Below, piece after piece: positions 2,418 to 58,836 of a DNA stretch of 64,000 nucleotides (the first letter of the stretch is position 1; every line of letters starts with the position of its first letter). Where the stretch lies: IMG/VR virus record IMGVR_UViG_3300029812_000193. One strand, given 5' to 3'. The notes below the pieces were generated by a model, which worked only from the letters and a program-made list of their open reading frames with translations, did not search any database and was not told where the DNA came from. The position numbers were made by a program, and so were the translations under genes. The stretch comes from a virus.

Positions 2418-3296
2418 ATGCCTTCAGGCAGGCTCAAATTTCTACTGTCCGCCATACTGGGCTTCCAGCTTTCTAGCTATGCGAACGTCTTACCGCACGA
2501 ATCTGGACATTCCATTTTCATTCACATATTCTCGGCTGGTGCAACTACCCCCACCTTTTATAACTGGTGGAACATTTTCATATCCCCTTGGACTATGTTT
2601 GCGAAGATGCCCTACGTTGCCTACAACGTTTTCGAGTTCGTTCTCTACCAAGCAGAGCTTCAACCAGTTGATGTTGGATGGTTCGGGGGCGTCTCGTTTT
2701 CTGGTGCGGAGATGACGCAGTTACAGATTACTGTATGTTATCTAGGCGGGATATTATTCCAGACGGCTCTGTTCATTCTCATAGCGTACATAGGGCTTAG
2801 GACCATCTCTCCGACTGTCGCTGGCCTATGTTCAGGGTTGCTGTTCGGGAGCTCCATATTTATATGGGCGTGCTACACTGACATGAGATATGTGTACGGT
2901 CACGGACTCGGCTGGATGGGGGAGGTCGAAGGAACGATAGTACCCACGCAGAATGCCAATATGATGGCGGCGTACACGCTGGCACTCATATGCCTGATGC
3001 TGCTCGTGTCTGCTTACTTAATCACCAAGGAGGCTGGCGAGATTGTTGAGCAGGAGATAGATTACCGCTATTCTTATATCCCAAGCGAGTTGCCAGTCAT
3101 CGTCATCGGAGTTGTGGTAGGGGCGGTCGCTCTTGCCCTGTTTGCAGTGGACATGTCACACTACTCTGGTCTGCTGATTCTAGGGTTCATACTCGCGTTC
3201 TGCGTCGATAAAATTCGCGAGATGTGGATAGTTCTTTTCGTCATCATCACGATGATTCCAGCGATAGTGTACGCTTTGTATGTGGCGGTAGTCTGA
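2418..3296 (+). CDS. Membrane metalloprotease, M50-like
   Basis: HESGH (HExxH) within an N-terminal hydrophobic region, many TM helices, later TD motif. Confidence 0.6.
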   Translation: MPSGRLKFLLSAILGFQLSSYANVLPHESGHSIFIHIFSAGATTPTFYNWWNIFISPWTMFAKMPYVAYNVFEFVLYQAELQPVDVGWFGGVSFSGAEMTQLQITVCYLGGILFQTALFILIAYIGLRTISPTVAGLCSGLLFGSSIFIWACYTDMRYVYGHGLGWMGEVEGTIVPTQNANMMAAYTLALICLMLLVSAYLITKEAGEIVEQEIDYRYSYIPSELPVIVIGVVVGAVALALFAVDMSHYSGLLILGFILAFCVDKIREMWIVLFVIITMIPAIVYALYVAVV

Positions 3297-9687: not shown

Positions 9688-12525
9688 TCATAACATTTCG
9701 GCTAAGATATGATTATACACCTGCTCCCTTTCCTGCTCTGAAGCGTTGTGAGTTCCCAGTAGCTCATCTATCCTGCTTTTCAGATGCGGATAGACTACAG
9801 AGTTTTTATCCATTCTGATGAGTTCTAAATTAGCCATGCCTCTACATTTTTGTGATATCCTTTGTCTTGTTCCCCCACTTGTTGCCGAAAGGAACAGGCA
9901 CTTGGATATAATATGCGTTTGATTGCATCCCTTGCTTTGCGTCTCCACGAACTTCAAAATTTTCTTCTGCTCATCGTCCAGCGTCGATACATCGCTCAGA
10001 ATCTTCTGCTTGGTTTCCTCCAAAAAGTCCTTCTGTATTTTCTCAAGAGGCGGGACCTCGTAGGTCACCGCACCAGCAACCGTAGGGACTCTGGCTAAGA
10101 CCTCGTTGATTATCTCTTCTTTATTAATCATTGGAGTAGTTGAGGTAGGCATTTTTTGTAGGACCTTGCCCACGACCTCATCTATGTCTATTTCCTGCTC
10201 TCTTGTCTTCAGATTGAACACGTCAGAAGATATCTTGTTCACGTGCGTCGTGACATCCTGTATTTTCTTGAAGAAGTCAATTCTCAATTCGTTGATATCC
10301 TTTTTTATTGAAGTCAGGTCGACTGCACCCACTTGCACTTGCATAGGTGTGGGTGTTGATATTGTGAAGGGTGTCAAACTCTCAGGTGGTTTCACCTCAC
10401 TCACGTCCTTCCTGCCAAGTGCTATCTCCCTTGCTGTCTTCTCATCCAACCAAGAGGGTATAATATAGGCCTTTTTAGTGAACTGGGAGGTTGCCACGTA
10501 GAAGTGACCCACTCGGAGTGAGGCTATCTCGTCCGTTGTCGGCTTTTGTTTTTTAGGAATCGGCAGCTGGTCTAACGTCCTTTTTATCTCGTTTATCTCT
10601 CTCTGGTAGCCTAAAATCCAAGTGCTGATTTGTTTCAGGGGGGACTTATCAACACCCGTAATATCCTGCGAATCCAAGAATAGATAATTGTTATTTGTAG
10701 CACCCTGCCTGATAAAAGCCTCCGCATCTCTCTTTATGGGGTTTCCTCTTCCTTCAGGTAAGTACTTCCAGCATTCGGGAATGACCACAACAGTATTCCT
10801 GTGTTTTTTAAGAATCTCTTCTAAAACGCTCCCAATAACAAGGCTCTGTATCTCCTCGCTGAACCTCTCCAAATCCATGATGTTGATTCCATCTTTTAAA
10901 TCCAAGGTTTTTGAGAAAGTGGCGTACTCCAACTGGGGGATGACAATTTCCAAGTATGCTTCAAGGGTCGTCAACACGCTTCTTGTAAGCGAGCTCTTAG
11001 TCTCTGCCTTCTTCTCTCTGACATTTTTCAGTACTCCTAACAGGGAGCCTGATGGGTTGTTCTTTGTCACGTCAATTATCCAGCTTCTTTCAAATTTTAA
11101 TTTCTCTCTTAGGGTCGCTTCCAGCAGTTGACTGACAAATTGCCAATCTGAATTATGCGTTACAAAGGGTAAACCATAAGTATGAGTTTCCGTTTCAATA
11201 TTGTAGACTAATCCAGAGTATGGCACTCTTTCGATTTTTCGGACAGGATAGTAAAGATAATTAGAATCAATTTTTACGGCTCTTCTTGAGCGAACTCTTT
11301 CTCTAGGGTTGGGGAAGCCAAAATCCACAGCATAGTCACCTAAAATTTCAACAATCCATCTGCTTTTTGGATTTTTACCAAATCCTGTTTTCGGAGGGCG
11401 AGACAGAGATATATAGATAGGAATACCAATCTTGGCACCTAGAGTTACCAAACCGTAGGCTATTTGAGTGCTTGTTGTCAATCCGCTGAATCTATCAAAT
11501 GGATGGTTCTCTTTTGCCCTTACGATGCATCCATCCCCCTTTAGCCATCCTTGAATGAATCCTTTAATCTGTTCATTTGGCAATTTATACACAAAAGAGG
11601 GTATTCTCTTTATTCTTGCAGATGCCCCAAAGTTATCCTTGAAAAAACGAGCCAAAATTGGCGAGCGGATATTAACCACGATGGTTCTATCTCTCTCTTT
11701 TATTTTTGCTCTTAATTTAAATTTCCTTTCTAACATCTCCTTAATTTTTTCTGCAAGAGCCATTTCGTGATATCCTAAATTCCATACTACAGAAGAGCAG
11801 TACATATTTTTCCTTTTACTTACCCAAGAACAACCTTCTGCCAAATAAATACCAAATAGCCATGCAAGTTCGTTATCTATCTGGAGGTCTAATGGTATCT
11901 TAATTCCCGTCTTTTTTATTCCTCTTTTCCCACTTTTTATATATCCTCTAAAGTCTAGTGTTATTATCTGTTGCTCTTTTATCCTAGGAACAAGTAGATA
12001 ACATCTTTTCTGGAGTTTATCAGCCAATATCCATCTTGATTCACCAATCCCATAATGACCCTCAAAAGCTCTCCATTTTCGATGTATACGTTCGGATATT
12101 AGAATTGGATGATTTGGAGTCATTCTCACAGGAGGCATCCCCAATGGTTTGACTTCTATTAAATCACCATCATATTCATTTTGAAAGGTATGTGTGATTC
12201 TAGTGAACTCTCCCTCACTATCAAGAACTTTATCACCCACATTTAAATCCTCAATAGATTTCAGCTCAGGATTGCATATGACCAATGTTTTTGGAGGTAA
12301 ACATCGTTCTTTGAAATATGGTGGTATGAGGGTCCCCTCGGTAATCCCTTTTTCACCAATCTTTGTTCTGAATATGACGGCTTTGAACCCCCCTCTTTTG
12401 ATTAATGCCTGTAGTGTTGTTGTCTTTCCGCTCTCCTGAGTGATTCCAGTGACGATTAAATGTGTTGGGGTAATTTCCACGCTCTCCCCCGTTCCAACTT
12501 CATAACCCAATAAAACTCTTTTCAT
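9688..12525 (-). CDS. HerA/FtsK-like P-loop ATPase interrupted by an intein, with C-terminal coiled-coil/wHTH region
   Basis: Walker A GITQESGKTT, Walker B VVVIPECW, DSQDITGVDK and ILGYQ motifs. Confidence 0.82.
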   Translation of the reverse strand: MKRVLLGYEVGTGESVEITPTHLIVTGITQESGKTTTLQALIKRGGFKAVIFRTKIGEKGITEGTLIPPYFKERCLPPKTLVICNPELKSIEDLNVGDKVLDSEGEFTRITHTFQNEYDGDLIEVKPLGMPPVRMTPNHPILISERIHRKWRAFEGHYGIGESRWILADKLQKRCYLLVPRIKEQQIITLDFRGYIKSGKRGIKKTGIKIPLDLQIDNELAWLFGIYLAEGCSWVSKRKNMYCSSVVWNLGYHEMALAEKIKEMLERKFKLRAKIKERDRTIVVNIRSPILARFFKDNFGASARIKRIPSFVYKLPNEQIKGFIQGWLKGDGCIVRAKENHPFDRFSGLTTSTQIAYGLVTLGAKIGIPIYISLSRPPKTGFGKNPKSRWIVEILGDYAVDFGFPNPRERVRSRRAVKIDSNYLYYPVRKIERVPYSGLVYNIETETHTYGLPFVTHNSDWQFVSQLLEATLREKLKFERSWIIDVTKNNPSGSLLGVLKNVREKKAETKSSLTRSVLTTLEAYLEIVIPQLEYATFSKTLDLKDGINIMDLERFSEEIQSLVIGSVLEEILKKHRNTVVVIPECWKYLPEGRGNPIKRDAEAFIRQGATNNNYLFLDSQDITGVDKSPLKQISTWILGYQREINEIKRTLDQLPIPKKQKPTTDEIASLRVGHFYVATSQFTKKAYIIPSWLDEKTAREIALGRKDVSEVKPPESLTPFTISTPTPMQVQVGAVDLTSIKKDINELRIDFFKKIQDVTTHVNKISSDVFNLKTREQEIDIDEVVGKVLQKMPTSTTPMINKEEIINEVLARVPTVAGAVTYEVPPLEKIQKDFLEETKQKILSDVSTLDDEQKKILKFVETQSKGCNQTHIISKCLFLSATSGGTRQRISQKCRGMANLELIRMDKNSVVYPHLKSRIDELLGTHNASEQEREQVYNHILAEML
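11152..12303 (-). mobile_element. Intein (384 aa) with LAGLIDADG endonuclease
   Basis: Begins CLPPKT at residue 75, ends VYNIETETHTY...VTHN followed by Ser; internal LFGIYLAEG and FIQGWLKGDG. Confidence 0.92.
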
Positions 12526-17220: not shown

Positions 17221-17700
17221 TTAATACAATAGTGTTATGGAGCTGTCGAGAATCGAACTCGAAGCCTTCTCGTTTCTTGACTGCCTTTTTTTGGGGGTTA
17301 TTTGCTCCCAAGACAATCCCATAAATTTCATACACCAATGAACACTTTTGTGGCACTTGTAACAGAGTCGCACATATTTGTCCGAATTTTGTTCTAATTC
17401 AGATATGAGATTTCTTTTGGGTAAGTTCGGCAGTGATGAGTGTTTCTTTCCATCTTTTCTGTGTGCTTGTAATCTAATCACACAACCACAGAAGAAACAA
17501 TCACTGCCAATTTTTTTACCTATAATATCTCGTTTCCTTTGTCTTATGAGTCTATTCTGTATTTTTTTAAGCCTTTGTGTTCGTTCATATTTTTCTTTTG
17601 GTGTAAGTACGGGTTTCGTCTTGGTCTCTAACCCCGCTTTCTTTCGGAGATACCAGTTGTGTTGGTATTCCTTTTGAACCCGTTTATCTTTAAATACCAC
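17221..17700 (-). CDS. HNH-like endonuclease
   Basis: CFFCG...LQAHR...VRLCYKCHKSVH. Confidence 0.5.
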   Translation of the reverse strand: MVFKDKRVQKEYQHNWYLRKKAGLETKTKPVLTPKEKYERTQRLKKIQNRLIRQRKRDIIGKKIGSDCFFCGCVIRLQAHRKDGKKHSSLPNLPKRNLISELEQNSDKYVRLCYKCHKSVHWCMKFMGLSWEQITPKKRQSRNEKASSSILDSSITLLY

Positions 17701-18889
17701 ATATTAAAGATGTTGTTGGTTCTATTTAATGATTTGGTTTGCATGCAAGCGAGATGTTCTACCATTGGCACTACAGCCCCTCTTCCCACTCACTCCAAGC
17801 TTTGCATCTATATTTTTTTCCTCCGAGCTTAAAATCGTATTTACGCCCTCTCGAAACTGTTATACGAGCCAGTTCTTCTTCTGTGACAGGATGGCAAATT
17901 CCTAGTTCTGCCTGAAGTTCCCTGCTCTGACGCAGTGCAACCCTGTCCCTGTATATGGGGGATTCAATATCCTCAAGGCTAGTGGTTGCATCGATGAAGG
18001 CATCTATAAAGTCGTATTTGTATTCCCTGTCAACTCCAAGTTTCCAGTCAATCTCTTCCCGTAATTGTGGTCTTGTCTTCAGTAGAGTTTCAATTTTTTC
18101 GATGGCGTCCTGCCTTTTCATCTTACGCTCCTTTCCTTGGCACAGTTCAACGTCTTACCATCTACGGAACATGTTACTGGTTCAACGAAGATATAGGTAT
18201 ACCTGCCGTGAAGACCTAACTCTCCCCGCAAACTGAAGTCCGCCTCATATCTGCCATTAGCATCTATCCTAATGCTTGAAATATCCTTTGGCGATAGAGT
18301 GACTACATTTATTACTTCACGTTCTCCGATGCCCAAATTGATGTGTGGCCTCTCTGGCTCTGGCTCGGTTATTATGGTTACCGTCCTGACGTTTTTATAG
18401 TTTTCACACATTTCCTAAATCCCGCTTTCAATTGCACCACAATGGCAAAGGAGTGGGCGTGGATTTCCACCATATCAACTTTCGGGGGAACGGGAACTAC
18501 CTACGTTGACACGGATACGCCCGATACCGTGCTGGTGCAGGATTCGGCGAGTTACGATAGACCCCAGTTTCATGCCATCGCTCATGTCCTTAATCCCTTT
18601 CCGATGATGGTGATGGTTGGGCTGGACTAATCACCCTTCTCTTTTTTCCAGCCGTCTATATCGCAAACCATCACACTGATGCCTTCACGGTCCTCCATAT
18701 TACAATGTCTAACCCAAAAGCCAATTAATTCTGGTGATACGTCCTCATAGTCATGTGGGTCGTCCACATTCCTTATTTGGCTTAGTCGTTCGTCTATAAA
18801 ATATTCCTTTCCATCTATCTTCAATCTTTTTAATGCTATGGCCATGCACAGCCACCTCTTTTTTCAATTATGCACCCTTCAGATGGCGA

Positions 18890-19300
18890 TGGTTGGGCTG
18901 GACACGTTTTTATTTTTGTCGATATTCTTTCGGAGGAAAGAATACGGAATTTGGTGTGCCCAGCCCGAAGCCCCGTCCCCAGCCTATAGAGGGGATGAGA
19001 TTAAACGGGGCTGGAGCGACGCGTTCTCATTCTACTCGGTTATTTCACACCCTTTATCCTTGTACCGCAACCCTTTAGGCTGGGTCACCGCCTACGGATT
19101 AGCTCGTCAGCGACACCGAGTGGCGAGGAGATTTTAACTCCTTCTTTCCCCTTGAGCAAGGTTTATTACGATGCTTTTACCCTTTCGAGCTCCAACCCCT
19201 ATCTTGGGTGGGATTTTAAGTGTTGGGGTGCTAGGCCAACCTCCGATGAGAGATTGGCCCGTGTGGCATAGCCTCTGCCCTAATCAAGCTCTCGCCAAGA
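18890..19300 (-). ncRNA. Candidate large structured ncRNA of unknown family
   Basis: About ten helices, several perfect 7-9 bp long-range pairings, one crossing pair (pseudoknot), G-U pairs favouring the minus strand. Confidence 0.55.
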
Positions 19301-20383
19301 TTATGTAAGGTTACGGGTTCTTAAGCTTTTCGGCTCGCACCTCGCACTCCACATATAACCGATTTGTCCACAACCAGCGAATTGATTATATCGTTGAAAT
19401 AATCCAATATATTGCCCTGAATCGGGTCTACACCGATAACCCTGAATGGTGAAGCACCGTAAACAATCTTAGCGTATCCTCTGTAATTGAACGTTTCTGG
19501 CAGCTCTTCAAGCTTCCCTAGAACTTCTTGCTGTGCGACAGGAGATAGTTCAGATACCTTTTTAATCTTGATTTCATAAATTCCTTCTTCACTCATACTC
19601 AACCCCCTCAATCGGGATGAAACCTCGACATGGTATGAGTGCCATTCCAAGAGTAAGTCGAAGTGCACGGTCCATGAAACCATCGGGACTTTTTGCATAA
19701 CACTCCATCTTCCCACACGTCAGACACGACTTCTTGACGGTCATGTTCTCGGCTGCCAGACCCCTCTCGTCTTCTTTCTTTTTTTGTTTTAATCTCTGTC
19801 TCGTCTTTTCACTAAGGTATCTCATCTGCTCACGGCTCCTGTTCTAACAATCTGACGGGTTCCAGAATCTTTATGAGTCTCTCTGCTACTATCACCTTCA
19901 ATTCAATTGGAGTTATGACACCACCCATAAAACCTTCTTTTAGGGCTTGGTATTGTTGGTCATCCCAATCACATACTAACTTGGCACACTGCAAAACCGT
20001 ATTTCCTCTTTCTACTTCATCCCATCCATCGTCTGCCATCACCCTCACCCCCCCTCTTTTAAAACAAACTCACTAAAATTCACACAACCGTCTTCATAGT
20101 CTGCTAATTCGTCAATCAACGCACATCGCCCCTCAACTTGTATCTTCGCAAGTGGACGGTATCCAAGAGGAACATACCAAGCACATTTCTTGCATTTTTC
20201 GGGCATTGATGATGTCATCTCAGCCTCTCCTCTTCGAGTTTTGAGATGCTGTCTTTAAATGGACAATCAGGACATCCAAGATTTCCATTCTCACAATCCT
20301 CTGCTTCATCACCATTAAAACCCCATTTTTCCGCAGTTGTAAGACAAAGAAGAAAATTTGCGTCTTCCTCTTTTCCAATATCA

Positions 20384-24227: not shown

Positions 24228-24364
24228 GGCGGTAGGGGGGATTTGAACCCCCGACATTACGGTCTGCCTTAGTCGGTTCATGACTCCGACCTTGCGAACT
24301 TTACATCTAGCTGAATGCTGCACGACCCATTTTTCGTGCTTGCTCGCACCTGACCTACTACCGC
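24228..24364 (-). ncRNA. Enlarged tRNA-like RNA (137 nt), possibly intron-containing or non-canonical
   Basis: Perfect acceptor stem GCGGTAG/CTACCGC, T arm GGGGG-TTCAAAT-CCCCC, TA at positions 8-9, internal hairpins. Confidence 0.55.
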
Positions 24365-29145: not shown

Positions 29146-30283
29146 CTGACGTACTCCCACGACTGAAGTTCGTGGGGTTCTGAGGTTAGCAGGGGGTTCA
29201 TGCCAGTGCCTCTCTGGGAGCATCAGTGCTACCCTTTGCCAAATCTCTGTCTTTGACAAATCGAGATATGCCGTTTTGGTACGCAAACGCTATGTTAAAC
29301 CCTGCGTTCACGTCGGCATTCTCAACTTTTCCACATTGTTTGCAGTGGAAAAGTTTTCCGTTTCTGTTTGCTGGTTCTATATGACCACACACACAGCATC
29401 GTTGGCTGGTGTACTGTGGTTCGATGTAGAACACGGGTATCCCCTGCTTTTTGGCTTTGTATTCTATCATCTGCTTGAGTTGATAGAAACTCCAAGAGTT
29501 CAGGGAGTACCTCTGCTGTTTCCTTGACTTTGCCGTTTTAGGTATGTCCTTCAATCCCTCAAGGACAATACCCGCCTTTTGCTTCACGCACTCCTCTATG
29601 AGCTTTTTGCTACAATGGTGGTTCAGGTTTTTGATTATCCTGCTTTCCCTGTTTTTTATCCGCTTCACCAAACCATACTTGCCCTGTTTTTGCAGTTTCT
29701 TCCTGATATGCTTGTATTTCTGGTGAATGTGATGTGCTGACTTTCCGAGTTTCAGCACTTTTCCAGTGGTTGGGTTTGATGCAACAAGACAATGCCCTTT
29801 GGTGTTGCGGTCAACGCCATATACTGAGGTTGGACTGATTGTGGGTGGCTCATCATAGCTCACTGATATGTAGGCGAACTCCTTGCCTATCTCTACTTGG
29901 TTGATTTTCTTGAAACCCTCTGGGAAGTAGATTGGTAGTTGGAGTTTAAGGCAGGCGATACGCACCTGGTTGTCTTTGACCTTGATGCTTTGAGACGGTA
30001 CTGTCAGCTTGATAGATTTTGCCTTTTTGACTGTCTTGCTTGATGAATACTTTTTGAGAATCTGGTTGCTGATGGCTGATTTCAAGCCGATGTGTTTGAC
30101 ATCGGCACTGCTTCTGGATTTAGTCTTGACTGCATATTCGGCTACCTTTTTGGCGAGCTTCAATTCATGGCTGAAATCCTGCCCGTGCCTGATTTTGTAG
30201 GTTAGTATCATCGTCCCTTTTGCTCCTCGATGTACTTCTTGATTGTGTCCTCTGATATGTGCCCTACGCTCTCGCAGTACAGA
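29146..30283 (-). mobile_element. Left-truncated IS200/IS605-type element (tnpA remnant, tnpB, right end)
   Basis: Right-end hairpin CCCCACGAACTTCAGTCGTGGG followed by AGTACGTCAG; tnpA tail YCESVGHISEDTIKKYIEEQK overlaps the tnpB start. Confidence 0.8.
29198..30211 (-). CDS. tnpB: TnpB RNA-guided endonuclease (337 aa)
   Basis: RuvC GVDRN, IVLEGL, NADVNAGFNI; Zn finger CCVCG/CKQCG; start revised to ATG 30211. Confidence 0.92.
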   Translation of the reverse strand: MILTYKIRHGQDFSHELKLAKKVAEYAVKTKSRSSADVKHIGLKSAISNQILKKYSSSKTVKKAKSIKLTVPSQSIKVKDNQVRIACLKLQLPIYFPEGFKKINQVEIGKEFAYISVSYDEPPTISPTSVYGVDRNTKGHCLVASNPTTGKVLKLGKSAHHIHQKYKHIRKKLQKQGKYGLVKRIKNRESRIIKNLNHHCSKKLIEECVKQKAGIVLEGLKDIPKTAKSRKQQRYSLNSWSFYQLKQMIEYKAKKQGIPVFYIEPQYTSQRCCVCGHIEPANRNGKLFHCKQCGKVENADVNAGFNIAFAYQNGISRFVKDRDLAKGSTDAPREALA

Positions 30284-55399: not shown

Positions 55400-56100
55400 A
55401 GGCGACTTGATAGTTCTGCATGAGAAGTGAAAGGAGCCCGTAGAGGGGAGATTTGCATGAGAAATCATGTGACAAATATGTCACAAAGGCAATGCTATAG
55501 CATGATGTTCACATTCACGCAACACACACACATGTGACTTCCTATGCAACTCGCGAGAGGGTGGGTATTATATTTTGTAAACCACTCAATAGTTTACAAT
55601 TGAGGAAAGCGATATATAAAGATTTGTTTTACTATATATACTTTTGATATTTATTATATATACTTTACGAAAAACTTATATACTATATACTATATATACT
55701 ATATATACTATATATACTATATATACTATACTATACTATACTATACTAATCATATATTATGTATACCAACCACTACTTTACTCTAGACCTACCCATACAT
55801 TTTCGTTCTGCATGCGAAACCACATGTGTGTGTGGTTGAAAAAGAAAAATCCCTTCGCTATCCTTTGATTACCTACATTTCCACTGGATTCTTAAAAAAT
55901 ATCAGAATGCTTTTATCACAAAACCCCATCGCCATCCTTTGATTTCACTTTTTGCGCATGCAACTTGCGACCCCACACATATGACTTCCTATGCAAAATT
56001 ACTTGAGTTTATGGGCTCGCATGTTGCCGATTTTTTAGTGATTTCTTGCATAGGAAATTTAAAGACCTCAATTCGCTCAATTTCATAAGGTATATATACC
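55400..56100. other. Putative replication origin next to cdc6
   Basis: AT-rich (TATATAC)n core at 55677-55747 flanked by a 14-bp inverted repeat (55523-55536/55821-55834); TGACTTCCTATGCAA boxes at 55535 and 55982, inverted partial copy at 56046. Confidence 0.65.
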
Positions 56101-57509: not shown

Positions 57510-58836
57510 GACTCCTGTCGCAAAGGAAGCCCACGCCCTTCAGGGGTGGGAGGAATTTGCGACCATAAAGCATTTAAGTATTCGATGACATTATAAACAT
57601 AGGTGTTAGGATGGAAGTCATTAAATCTATAACGTTGAATCTGCTTGAGCCAACTATGGTCAAGCGTGAGAAGTTGGCAGAGCTTGAGCAAAGGTACAAA
57701 GATGCCCTCTCCTTCGTTGTTTCCCAGGATATTAAAGCCAGCAGAATCAAGCTCCAATCTAGATTTTATAAAGATGTCAGAGAGTTCGGGCTCCATAGCC
57801 AGATAGCCAACGACCTCTTCAAGGATGCTGTGGCAATTCTTAACAATGGTGGAAAAGTCAGGAGGGTTACGATACCCTACAACATCCCAAGGAGCGGGAA
57901 ATTCGCCACCACCAAGCATGGAAATCCTGTTATCTCCATCGCAACCCTCGATGGGAGGATAGTCATACCAGTCGCCATGGACGGTGCCTATGAGCGATAT
58001 GAAGGGCTGTTGAAGCAGGGGTATGAAACCACCTTCTTCAGACTTAATCATTCCAAAATTCATGTCACTCTCAAGAAAGACTTTGAGATAGGGGAGGACT
58101 ACGATGCCGTTCTCGGTGTTGATGTTGGAGTTAAAAGGCTGGCAGCTGTCTCCATAATCAATCGAGGGGGCAGAATTCTCAAGCAACTCTATCTCGGTCA
58201 AGACGTGGGCGACAGACAGAGAGACACAGACCTTAGAAGGAGCAAGCTCAGAGGGCACGCCGATAAAGGAAGCAGATACGCCAAGCAAGCCCTCAGAAGG
58301 CTCAGGAAAAGAGAGAGCAACTACACCACCACACGGTGCTGGCAGGTCGCACATGAAATCGTCGAGCTTGCCGAGAAATACAACGCCTTCATCGCCATCG
58401 AAGACCTCAAGCATCTCAAGGATGCCAAGGGCAACAGGAAAGGCAACCGCAAGAGCAAGAGGATGCCCTACCATAAATTTAGAGTGGCACTCGAATCCGT
58501 GGCTGGGCAGAACAACAGGCTCGTAGTTGCGGTATATCCCAGAGGAACATCGCACATCTGCTCCAGATGCGGAATGAAAGGCAGCAGGAACAAGGGGTAC
58601 TTCAGATGCCCAAATTGCGGGTATGAGGCAAATAGTGATAGAAACGCCTCCGTGAACGTCGCCATCAGGGCTGGCACAAGCCATCCTAACACCTTGGCTT
58701 TTTTCGCCAAGATTCCTGATGGAAACCTGTCGGTCAACGCAGGAGATTTTGTCCATGACGGGGTTGGTATAAGATGCTTGCAGCATTCGTATCATCTCCG
58801 AGACAAGCCCACATGCTTTAGCTGTGGGTAGTTGAC
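57510..58836 (+). mobile_element. tnpB-only IS200/IS605-group element
   Basis: Left-end hairpin CCCACGCCCTTCAGGGGTGGG within GTCGCAAA/TTTGCGAC; right end CCCACATGCTTTAGCTGTGGGTAGTTGAC; inserted after TTCAC. Confidence 0.88.
57611..58831 (+). CDS. tnpB: TnpB RNA-guided endonuclease
   Basis: GVDVG, IAIEDL, CSRCG/CPNCG, NSDRNASVNV. Confidence 0.93.
   Translation: MEVIKSITLNLLEPTMVKREKLAELEQRYKDALSFVVSQDIKASRIKLQSRFYKDVREFGLHSQIANDLFKDAVAILNNGGKVRRVTIPYNIPRSGKFATTKHGNPVISIATLDGRIVIPVAMDGAYERYEGLLKQGYETTFFRLNHSKIHVTLKKDFEIGEDYDAVLGVDVGVKRLAAVSIINRGGRILKQLYLGQDVGDRQRDTDLRRSKLRGHADKGSRYAKQALRRLRKRESNYTTTRCWQVAHEIVELAEKYNAFIAIEDLKHLKDAKGNRKGNRKSKRMPYHKFRVALESVAGQNNRLVVAVYPRGTSHICSRCGMKGSRNKGYFRCPNCGYEANSDRNASVNVAIRAGTSHPNTLAFFAKIPDGNLSVNAGDFVHDGVGIRCLQHSYHLRDKPTCFSCG

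Follow-up and report, generated by a model that had tools for sequence, protein, structure and literature searches.

A candidate structured noncoding RNA with a tRNA-like arm in an intergenic gap of a putative archaeal mobile element

An intergenic gap of about 450-475 bp in the window (the whole stretch of DNA analyzed, 64 kb) most likely holds the gene of a folded noncoding RNA of about 414 bases, predicted to be transcribed from an archaeal promoter of its own, to carry a tRNA-like arm and to belong to an archaeal mobile element. We give about even chances to the more specific reading, drawn from the sequence, that this is a stand-alone structured RNA which heads a transcript ending in tRNA-Ala and would be handled through its tRNA-like arm. 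An earlier sequence-only reading of the same gap proposed an undescribed large structured RNA or ribozyme on the minus strand. The first part of this proposal is supported by the folding statistics, the rank of the region among windows of the contig, the promoter spacing, a blank Rfam search and the absence of a coding homolog, the fold itself being a prediction. The ribozyme part found no support: no catalytic core was detected, and nothing in the locus needs to be spliced out.

Genomic setting, promoter and transcript

Genes are densely packed on the archaeal contig that makes up the window; they include two Cdc6 genes, a MoxR-type ATPase and its vWA partner, aroA, TnpB-like genes and many small genes of no assigned function. 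We read the contig as an archaeal mobile element. Its Cdc6 is about 50% identical to those of many genomes, which does not fix the host lineage. The candidate RNA lies between two genes of the minus strand, encoding proteins of 91 and 72 amino acids (Table 1), and a gap of about 450 nt is of unusual size here, since the neighboring small genes abut. Among other features of the element, the end of a TnpB element (58666-58810) and positions 1-145 of a related metagenome contig are 98% identical, which makes a common host community of the two elements probable. A 9-bp tandem repeat with T/A-rich units (55669-55728, plus strand), located immediately after a TATA-like site, with a cdc6 gene about 400 bp further on, is a possible replication origin. 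In addition, a 945-aa HerA-like ATPase frame (9688-12525, minus strand) contains an intein that carries a LAGLIDADG domain.

Table 1. Features of the candidate RNA locus (coordinates of the window)
Feature	Position	Strand	Comment
Candidate structured ncRNA, about 414 nt	18884..19297	-	predicted ends: start 19297-19296, 3' boundary strand 18889-18884
Promoter-like site, archaeal (BRE 19333-19326, TATA box 19325-19318)	19318..19333	-	putative function
91-aa gene, upstream	19321..19596	-	family without a name, 36 representatives
5' domain, closed by helix 19297-91/19127-21	19121..19297	-	contains 12-bp hairpin 19260-19233, GAAA hairpin 19190-19179 and T-arm-like hairpin
T-arm-like hairpin and 5-bp acceptor-like helix with the RNA 5' end	19121..19142	-	stack of 10 bp, versus 12 in tRNA
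Middle domain	19034..19121	-	helix 19121-15/19040-34 around hairpin 19114-19084 and an A/G-rich loop
Long-range helix 19199-89/19017-07	19007..19199	-	11 bp, one G-U; strongest long-range helix
Candidate loop-loop (pseudoknot) helix 19084-76/18986-78	18978..19084	-	9 perfect bp
3' domain: 11-bp helix 18966-56/18905-895, capped by A-U-rich hairpin 18944-18923	18895..18966	-	pair probability ~1.0
22-bp direct repeat, copy 1	18882..18903		at the RNA 3' end
72-aa gene, between the repeat copies	18627..18845	-	function unassigned; homologs 60-85% identity
22-bp direct repeat, copy 2	18606..18627		just past the 72-aa gene
tRNA-Ala(UGC) gene with 470-nt intron	17238..17780	-	1.1 kb downstream of the RNA, same strand

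The promoter-like site reaches into the end of the 91-aa gene upstream, where it overlaps the stop codon, and is one of nine sites in the 64 kb that match a BRE-TATA pattern of our own definition. The distance from the start of the TATA box to the first helix of the RNA is 28-29 nt, and the same distance in four control SRP RNA genes is 28-31 nt. Shuffling the upstream 100 nt 20,000 times reproduced the pattern in 93 cases, a figure that, like that given below for the T-arm, overstates the significance, since both patterns were picked after the sequence had been seen.

No terminator was found at the RNA 3' end. Host RNA polymerase would start at about 19296 and read through four small genes to tRNA-Ala, because no stretch of at least five U lies in between. 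The tRNA-Ala gene, followed by a U-rich tract (17198-17183), is thus the probable end of a presumed common transcript of about 2.1 kb that the RNA would head. This tRNA gene is split at position 37/38 by an intron with a clean bulge-helix-bulge motif, its joined exons are recognized by ARAGORN as tRNA-Ala, and a 159-aa frame for an HNH endonuclease (17221-17700; PHROG match with E 5.9e-7) lies for the most part within the intron. Three further tRNA-type genes are present in the window, and the element encodes both tRNAs and tRNA-like RNAs. An oversized tRNA-like gene (24228-24364, minus strand) has a canonical T-arm and a bulge-helix-bulge-like motif in which 24347 pairs with 24294; this points to an intron of about 50 nt in the D-arm.

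Predicted fold and its significance

Comparison of the folding energy with shuffled sequences, named in the sequence-only reading as a way to refute it, gave a significant result: the minus strand of 19297-18884 has a z-score of -4.93, and none of 100 shuffles folds equally well. The same reading had noted that mismatches become G-U pairs only on the minus strand, and this asymmetry was borne out. The span 18880-19310 has a z-score of -4.43 on the minus strand versus -2.19 on the plus strand, 13 G-U pairs occur in the main minus-strand helices, and folding as DNA is weak and symmetric, about -2.6 for both strands. Among 306 windows of 414 nt from the contig the unit ranks third; the first two coincide in part with places in which one expects structured RNA, namely the 3' end of a tnpB-like gene and the intron of tRNA-Ala. 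The best-folding window of all (29234-29647, minus strand) is that at the tnpB-like gene, the expected place of a guide-RNA scaffold. Five helices of the unit stack at -20 kcal/mol or better, compared with a shuffle mean of 0.77, and one of 300 shuffles reaches five; the count of possible helices is inflated by a CCAGCC/GGCUGG motif common to many strands. A 70-nt module that seemed to be duplicated within the unit gave no significant result, with 225-984 of 1,000 shuffles scoring equally.

These values bear on the reading in which the structure arose by chance in a G+C-richer gap that acts only as a promoter and spacer for the downstream genes. The region was chosen by eye from 64 kb, the z-scores of the window have a spread of 1.2, and the middle third of the unit by itself is unremarkable in nested folding (z -0.6), as expected if crossing helices carry that part, or if it is unstructured. 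Against this stand the size of the gap among abutting genes and the coincidence of three separate signals, namely promoter spacing, closing helix and T-arm, at one 5' end, and we hold a chance structure to be very unlikely.

Five helices listed in the sequence-only reading (19121-27/19291-97, 19034-40/19115-21, 18959-65/19078-84, 18969-76/19005-12 and 18923-31/18936-44) are indeed perfect complements. The hairpin reported at 19234-59 is also present, and its 10 bp extend to 12 bp with one G-U pair on the minus strand; the GAAA-loop hairpin exists as well, with two G-U pairs. The earlier list, real as far as it went, omitted the strongest long-range helix, 19199-89/19017-07. This helix excludes the hairpin 19012-05/18976-69, and at 60-70 C nested folding favors the helix.

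The pseudoknot was originally drawn with a 7-bp crossing helix, 19084-78/18965-59. The complementarity exists, and the partner strand was probably chosen wrongly: the segment 18986-78 makes a longer perfect helix with 19084-76 and leaves the 11-bp helix of the 3' domain intact. If a crossing helix forms, it most likely uses this segment, which lies in the loop of the hairpin 19012-18969, so that the helix crosses both this hairpin and the middle-domain helix. Likewise, the pairing of a GGCTGGG strand with the repeat, taken before as the alternative state of a switch, was probably mis-assigned. The strands are complementary (at 18903-18895, one base away from the position claimed), and, with a pair probability of about 1.0, the helix 18966-56/18905-895 is dominant, that is, the ground state and not an alternative.

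Altogether, three long-range helices able to cross can be drawn from the sequence. Nested folding at 37 C favors local hairpins over the candidate pseudoknot helix, and since each long-range strand also has a local partner, two candidate conformers can be drawn. The RNA 5' strand, for its part, pairs with either 19127-21 or 18889-84, the latter of which would close the whole unit. The loop of the hairpin 19114-19084 contains the palindrome AGCU (within 19107-19094, minus strand), which is likely due to chance, being only four bases long; in OLE or GOLLD, AGCU serves in kissing loops between molecules (10.1101/2024.12.08.627333).

Neighboring genes and the direct repeat

Both flanking genes align full-length with their homologs. 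The RNA is absent at the three homolog loci of the 91-aa gene examined and at the loci of the 72-aa gene homologs, which occupy other gene contexts among other small genes; nor was such an RNA found on the contigs that carry genes of the two families. Since the flanking genes occur elsewhere without it, the RNA is not their obligatory leader and is tied to neither neighbor.

These data are relevant to the possibility that the RNA is a cis-acting 5' leader controlling translation of the 72-aa gene. Its tail (18887-81) would then pair either with the RNA 5' end or with the ribosome-binding site (18857-51), and folding of the tRNA-like 5' domain, perhaps with a bound ligand, would choose between the two partners. 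When the folded sequence is lengthened to 18820, the ribosome-binding site lies in a paired state, five of its six bases having an unpaired probability of at most 0.11, and closure of the 5' end onto the 3' end frees half of the site and the first base of the AUG at a cost of only 1.4 kcal/mol. Several mutually exclusive helices and the missing terminator fit a leader as well, and the hairpin 19114-19084, counted on the same side, resembles the c-di-AMP riboswitch in its junction sequences, with no match in Rfam. No aptamer model for c-di-AMP or cobalamin matched, and the 7-bp tail helix that can cover the ribosome-binding site spans a 23-nt loop and is near chance. Moreover, at six loci where the 72-aa gene has a close homolog (77-85% identity) the sequence directly upstream is another gene or unrelated, rather than such an RNA leader, and the gene resembles a later insertion between the repeats. 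On balance, control in cis, the strongest competing account, seems unlikely.

The existence of a 22-nt repeat that recurs after the 72-aa gene was noted correctly in the earlier reading, with coordinates one base off (18607-18628 instead of 18606-18627; the first copy is 18882-18903). Its copies are identical at 21 of 22 positions, and the sole difference (18611 in copy 2) disrupts the pairing with the RNA 5' end; with copy 2 in place of copy 1, the 3' helix keeps only 9 of its 11 bp. As the 72-aa gene behaves like a shuffled cassette, the stand-alone RNA reading explains the direct repeat as a presumed insertion scar: the cassette would have been inserted at the RNA 3' end, and the repeat would not be a working switch. 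The second gap (18405-18630) is unstructured (folding z +0.9), and thus the RNA stops short of continuing beyond the 72-aa gene. A small Cys-containing frame behind repeat copy 2 (18416-18585, minus strand) is broken by one TGA at 18477-18475, for which a pseudogene, a sequencing error or read-through are candidate causes.

tRNA-like arm and comparison with known RNAs

The hairpin 19142-19126 has a stem of five Watson-Crick pairs and a 7-nt loop, UUAAAAU, which is one base off the T-loops of the tRNAs of this element; U54 and A58 are present, and the one mismatch is C56 to A. The five bases that follow pair with the RNA 5' end. Such 5-bp hairpins occur six times in 128 kb (both strands), four of them in tRNA-type genes, and a T-arm-like hairpin on an acceptor-like helix is contained in 33 of 20,000 shuffles, again for a pattern selected after inspection. 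At the same time, the acceptor and T-stem stack reaches at most 10 bp (5+5 or 6+4), and a 12-bp stack with a discriminator was not found. The D-loop partner of the hairpin is weak, and we found neither an anticodon arm nor a bulge-helix-bulge intron whose removal would yield a tRNA. None of 2,065 single deletions passes the ARAGORN threshold, and deleted forms are called only below it; at least one such call occurs in 18 of 200 shuffles, and as many calls in 3 of 200. Judged by its sequence, then, the arm is tRNA-like and not a tRNA.

The Rfam search, another check suggested at the outset, returned no match at gathering scores, and a cutoff relaxed to E 10 added nothing but noise; this includes the covariance models of ROOL, GOLLD and OLE. 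The sequence-only reading had found no signatures of group I or II introns, RNase P, SRP, tmRNA or hammerhead, and Rfam together with pattern searches agrees. The Rfam group I model (RF00028) misses archaeal group I introns (PMC6125680), so the blank is weak for this class; we therefore searched 19400-18400 by pattern and found, inside the RNA, no P7 with a bulged base and a G-A-C / G-U-C guanosine site. A group I intron was rejected, as the RNA has no P7 signature and no host gene is interrupted. For the domain V hairpin of group II (AGC or CGC triad) there was neither a candidate by pattern nor an Rfam match. Of the hammerhead motifs, a lone CUGANGA occurs at 19110, with no GAAA after any stem II partner strand. 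The patterns of RNase P RNA conserved regions I and V and of the archaeal SRP helix 8 motif are absent, with Rfam blank; the tmRNA alanine acceptor (G3-U70, CCA) and tag frame are absent too, with ARAGORN and Rfam blank.

This bears most directly on a ribozyme or self-splicing element of an undescribed or highly diverged type, in which the strand 18966-58 would serve as a guide that binds either copy of the repeat and marks a cleavage or splice site. The size and the crossing helices fit a large ribozyme, the 9-bp helix, which includes one G-U, is the same with either copy of the repeat, and the silence of Rfam counts for little where archaeal introns are concerned. Nevertheless, P7, domain V, a full hammerhead, and RNase P or SRP motifs are all missing, no convincing bulge-helix-bulge was found at the RNA ends, and both flanking genes are whole, so that nothing needs splicing. 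We consider this explanation highly improbable.

The region does not appear to be coding: no ORF of 60 codons is present on the minus strand, and a search of 5.8 billion proteins of similar length gave no relative for the 99-aa frame of the plus strand. Viral and metagenome contigs yielded no homolog in exact-pattern searches, where the viral matches were coding sequence or an unrelated permuted tmRNA, or with the open plus-strand frames as degenerate probes. Blastn was negative for phages and plasmids, gave three short chance matches in 401 sampled genomes of the phylum of Halobacteria and no homolog in 15 more, and single-sequence covariance models found no homolog in sets of 14, 79 and 15 genomes and neighbor loci; these genomes are samples of incomplete assemblies, in which the RNA was not found rather than shown to be absent.

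The failure to find a homolog would also agree with a non-functional or DNA-level remnant, either a decayed tRNA-type gene or a non-autonomous mobile insert, whose short inverted motifs and 22-bp direct repeats would be scars of recombination or insertion. The imperfect tRNA geometry, the mobile-looking small gene flanked by direct repeats and the broken frame in the next gap point in the same direction. However, the folding is strand-specific and relies on G-U pairs, the promoter is intact and at the right distance, and the RNA is present in a single copy in the 64 kb, with no likeness to the ends of the tnpB elements of the window. Decay is accordingly a rather unlikely account of the gap.

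The candidate, a member of no tested family, is best filed with the large structured RNAs of mobile elements. By analogy, it most plausibly works like the ornate RNAs ROOL, GOLLD and OLE (10.1101/2024.12.08.627333), with which it shares a length of several hundred bases, many potential crossing or loop-loop helices and a setting in a mobile element near tRNA genes; ROOL and GOLLD are also located near phage tRNA genes. In contrast to them, it is archaeal, has about 414 nt versus 800 or more for many GOLLD RNAs, and does not match their Rfam models. In the stand-alone reading, the RNA would fold into an ornate shape stabilized by loop-loop contacts and present a tRNA-like elbow. Most likely, host tRNA-handling proteins would recognize this elbow, so that the RNA would be cut out of its transcript as in the t-elements of Haloferax; alternatively, the RNA may bind these proteins in the course of infection, as a decoy or a scaffold. 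A more elaborate version, a class of RNAs combining a tRNA mimic with kissing loops, in which the 5' end flips between partners and a host enzyme at the elbow switches the fold to release the RNA or open the ribosome-binding site, strikes us as improbable.

Large structured RNAs without a family are rare, and the catalogued ornate ones (ROOL, GOLLD and OLE) are bacterial. A promoter-driven RNA with a tRNA-like arm would, if true, extend the ornate class to archaeal mobile elements and make tRNA-processing enzymes a testable handle on the job of such RNAs; the value of the candidate is held back by its resting on a single sequence.

Three other known systems share some of these traits. The t-elements of Haloferax have a tRNA-like structure at which RNase P and tRNase Z cut (PMC4326828). 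They resemble the candidate in being archaeal, in the stacking of a T-arm on an acceptor-like helix and in their position within a longer transcript with further RNA after them, whereas in the candidate about 135 nt of additional structure lies between the tRNA-like ends and the stack has 10 bp. Archaeal group I introns (IB4 and IA3; PMC6125680) are similar in size and in a drawable pair of crossing helices, and differ by their P7 guanosine-site signature and the host gene they interrupt. Finally, tmRNA, including the permuted form (RF04321), combines a tRNA-like end with pseudoknot-capable sequence, but the candidate lacks the G3-U70 acceptor, the CCA end and a tag frame ending in alanines. 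Its T-arm and acceptor strand are identical at 20 of 21 positions to the T-arm end of a permuted tmRNA on a viral contig, a match that came from searching that very pattern and reflects likeness of T-arms, not descent. The permuted tmRNA gene itself, at 2577-2779 (plus strand) of that contig, scores above the Rfam gathering threshold.
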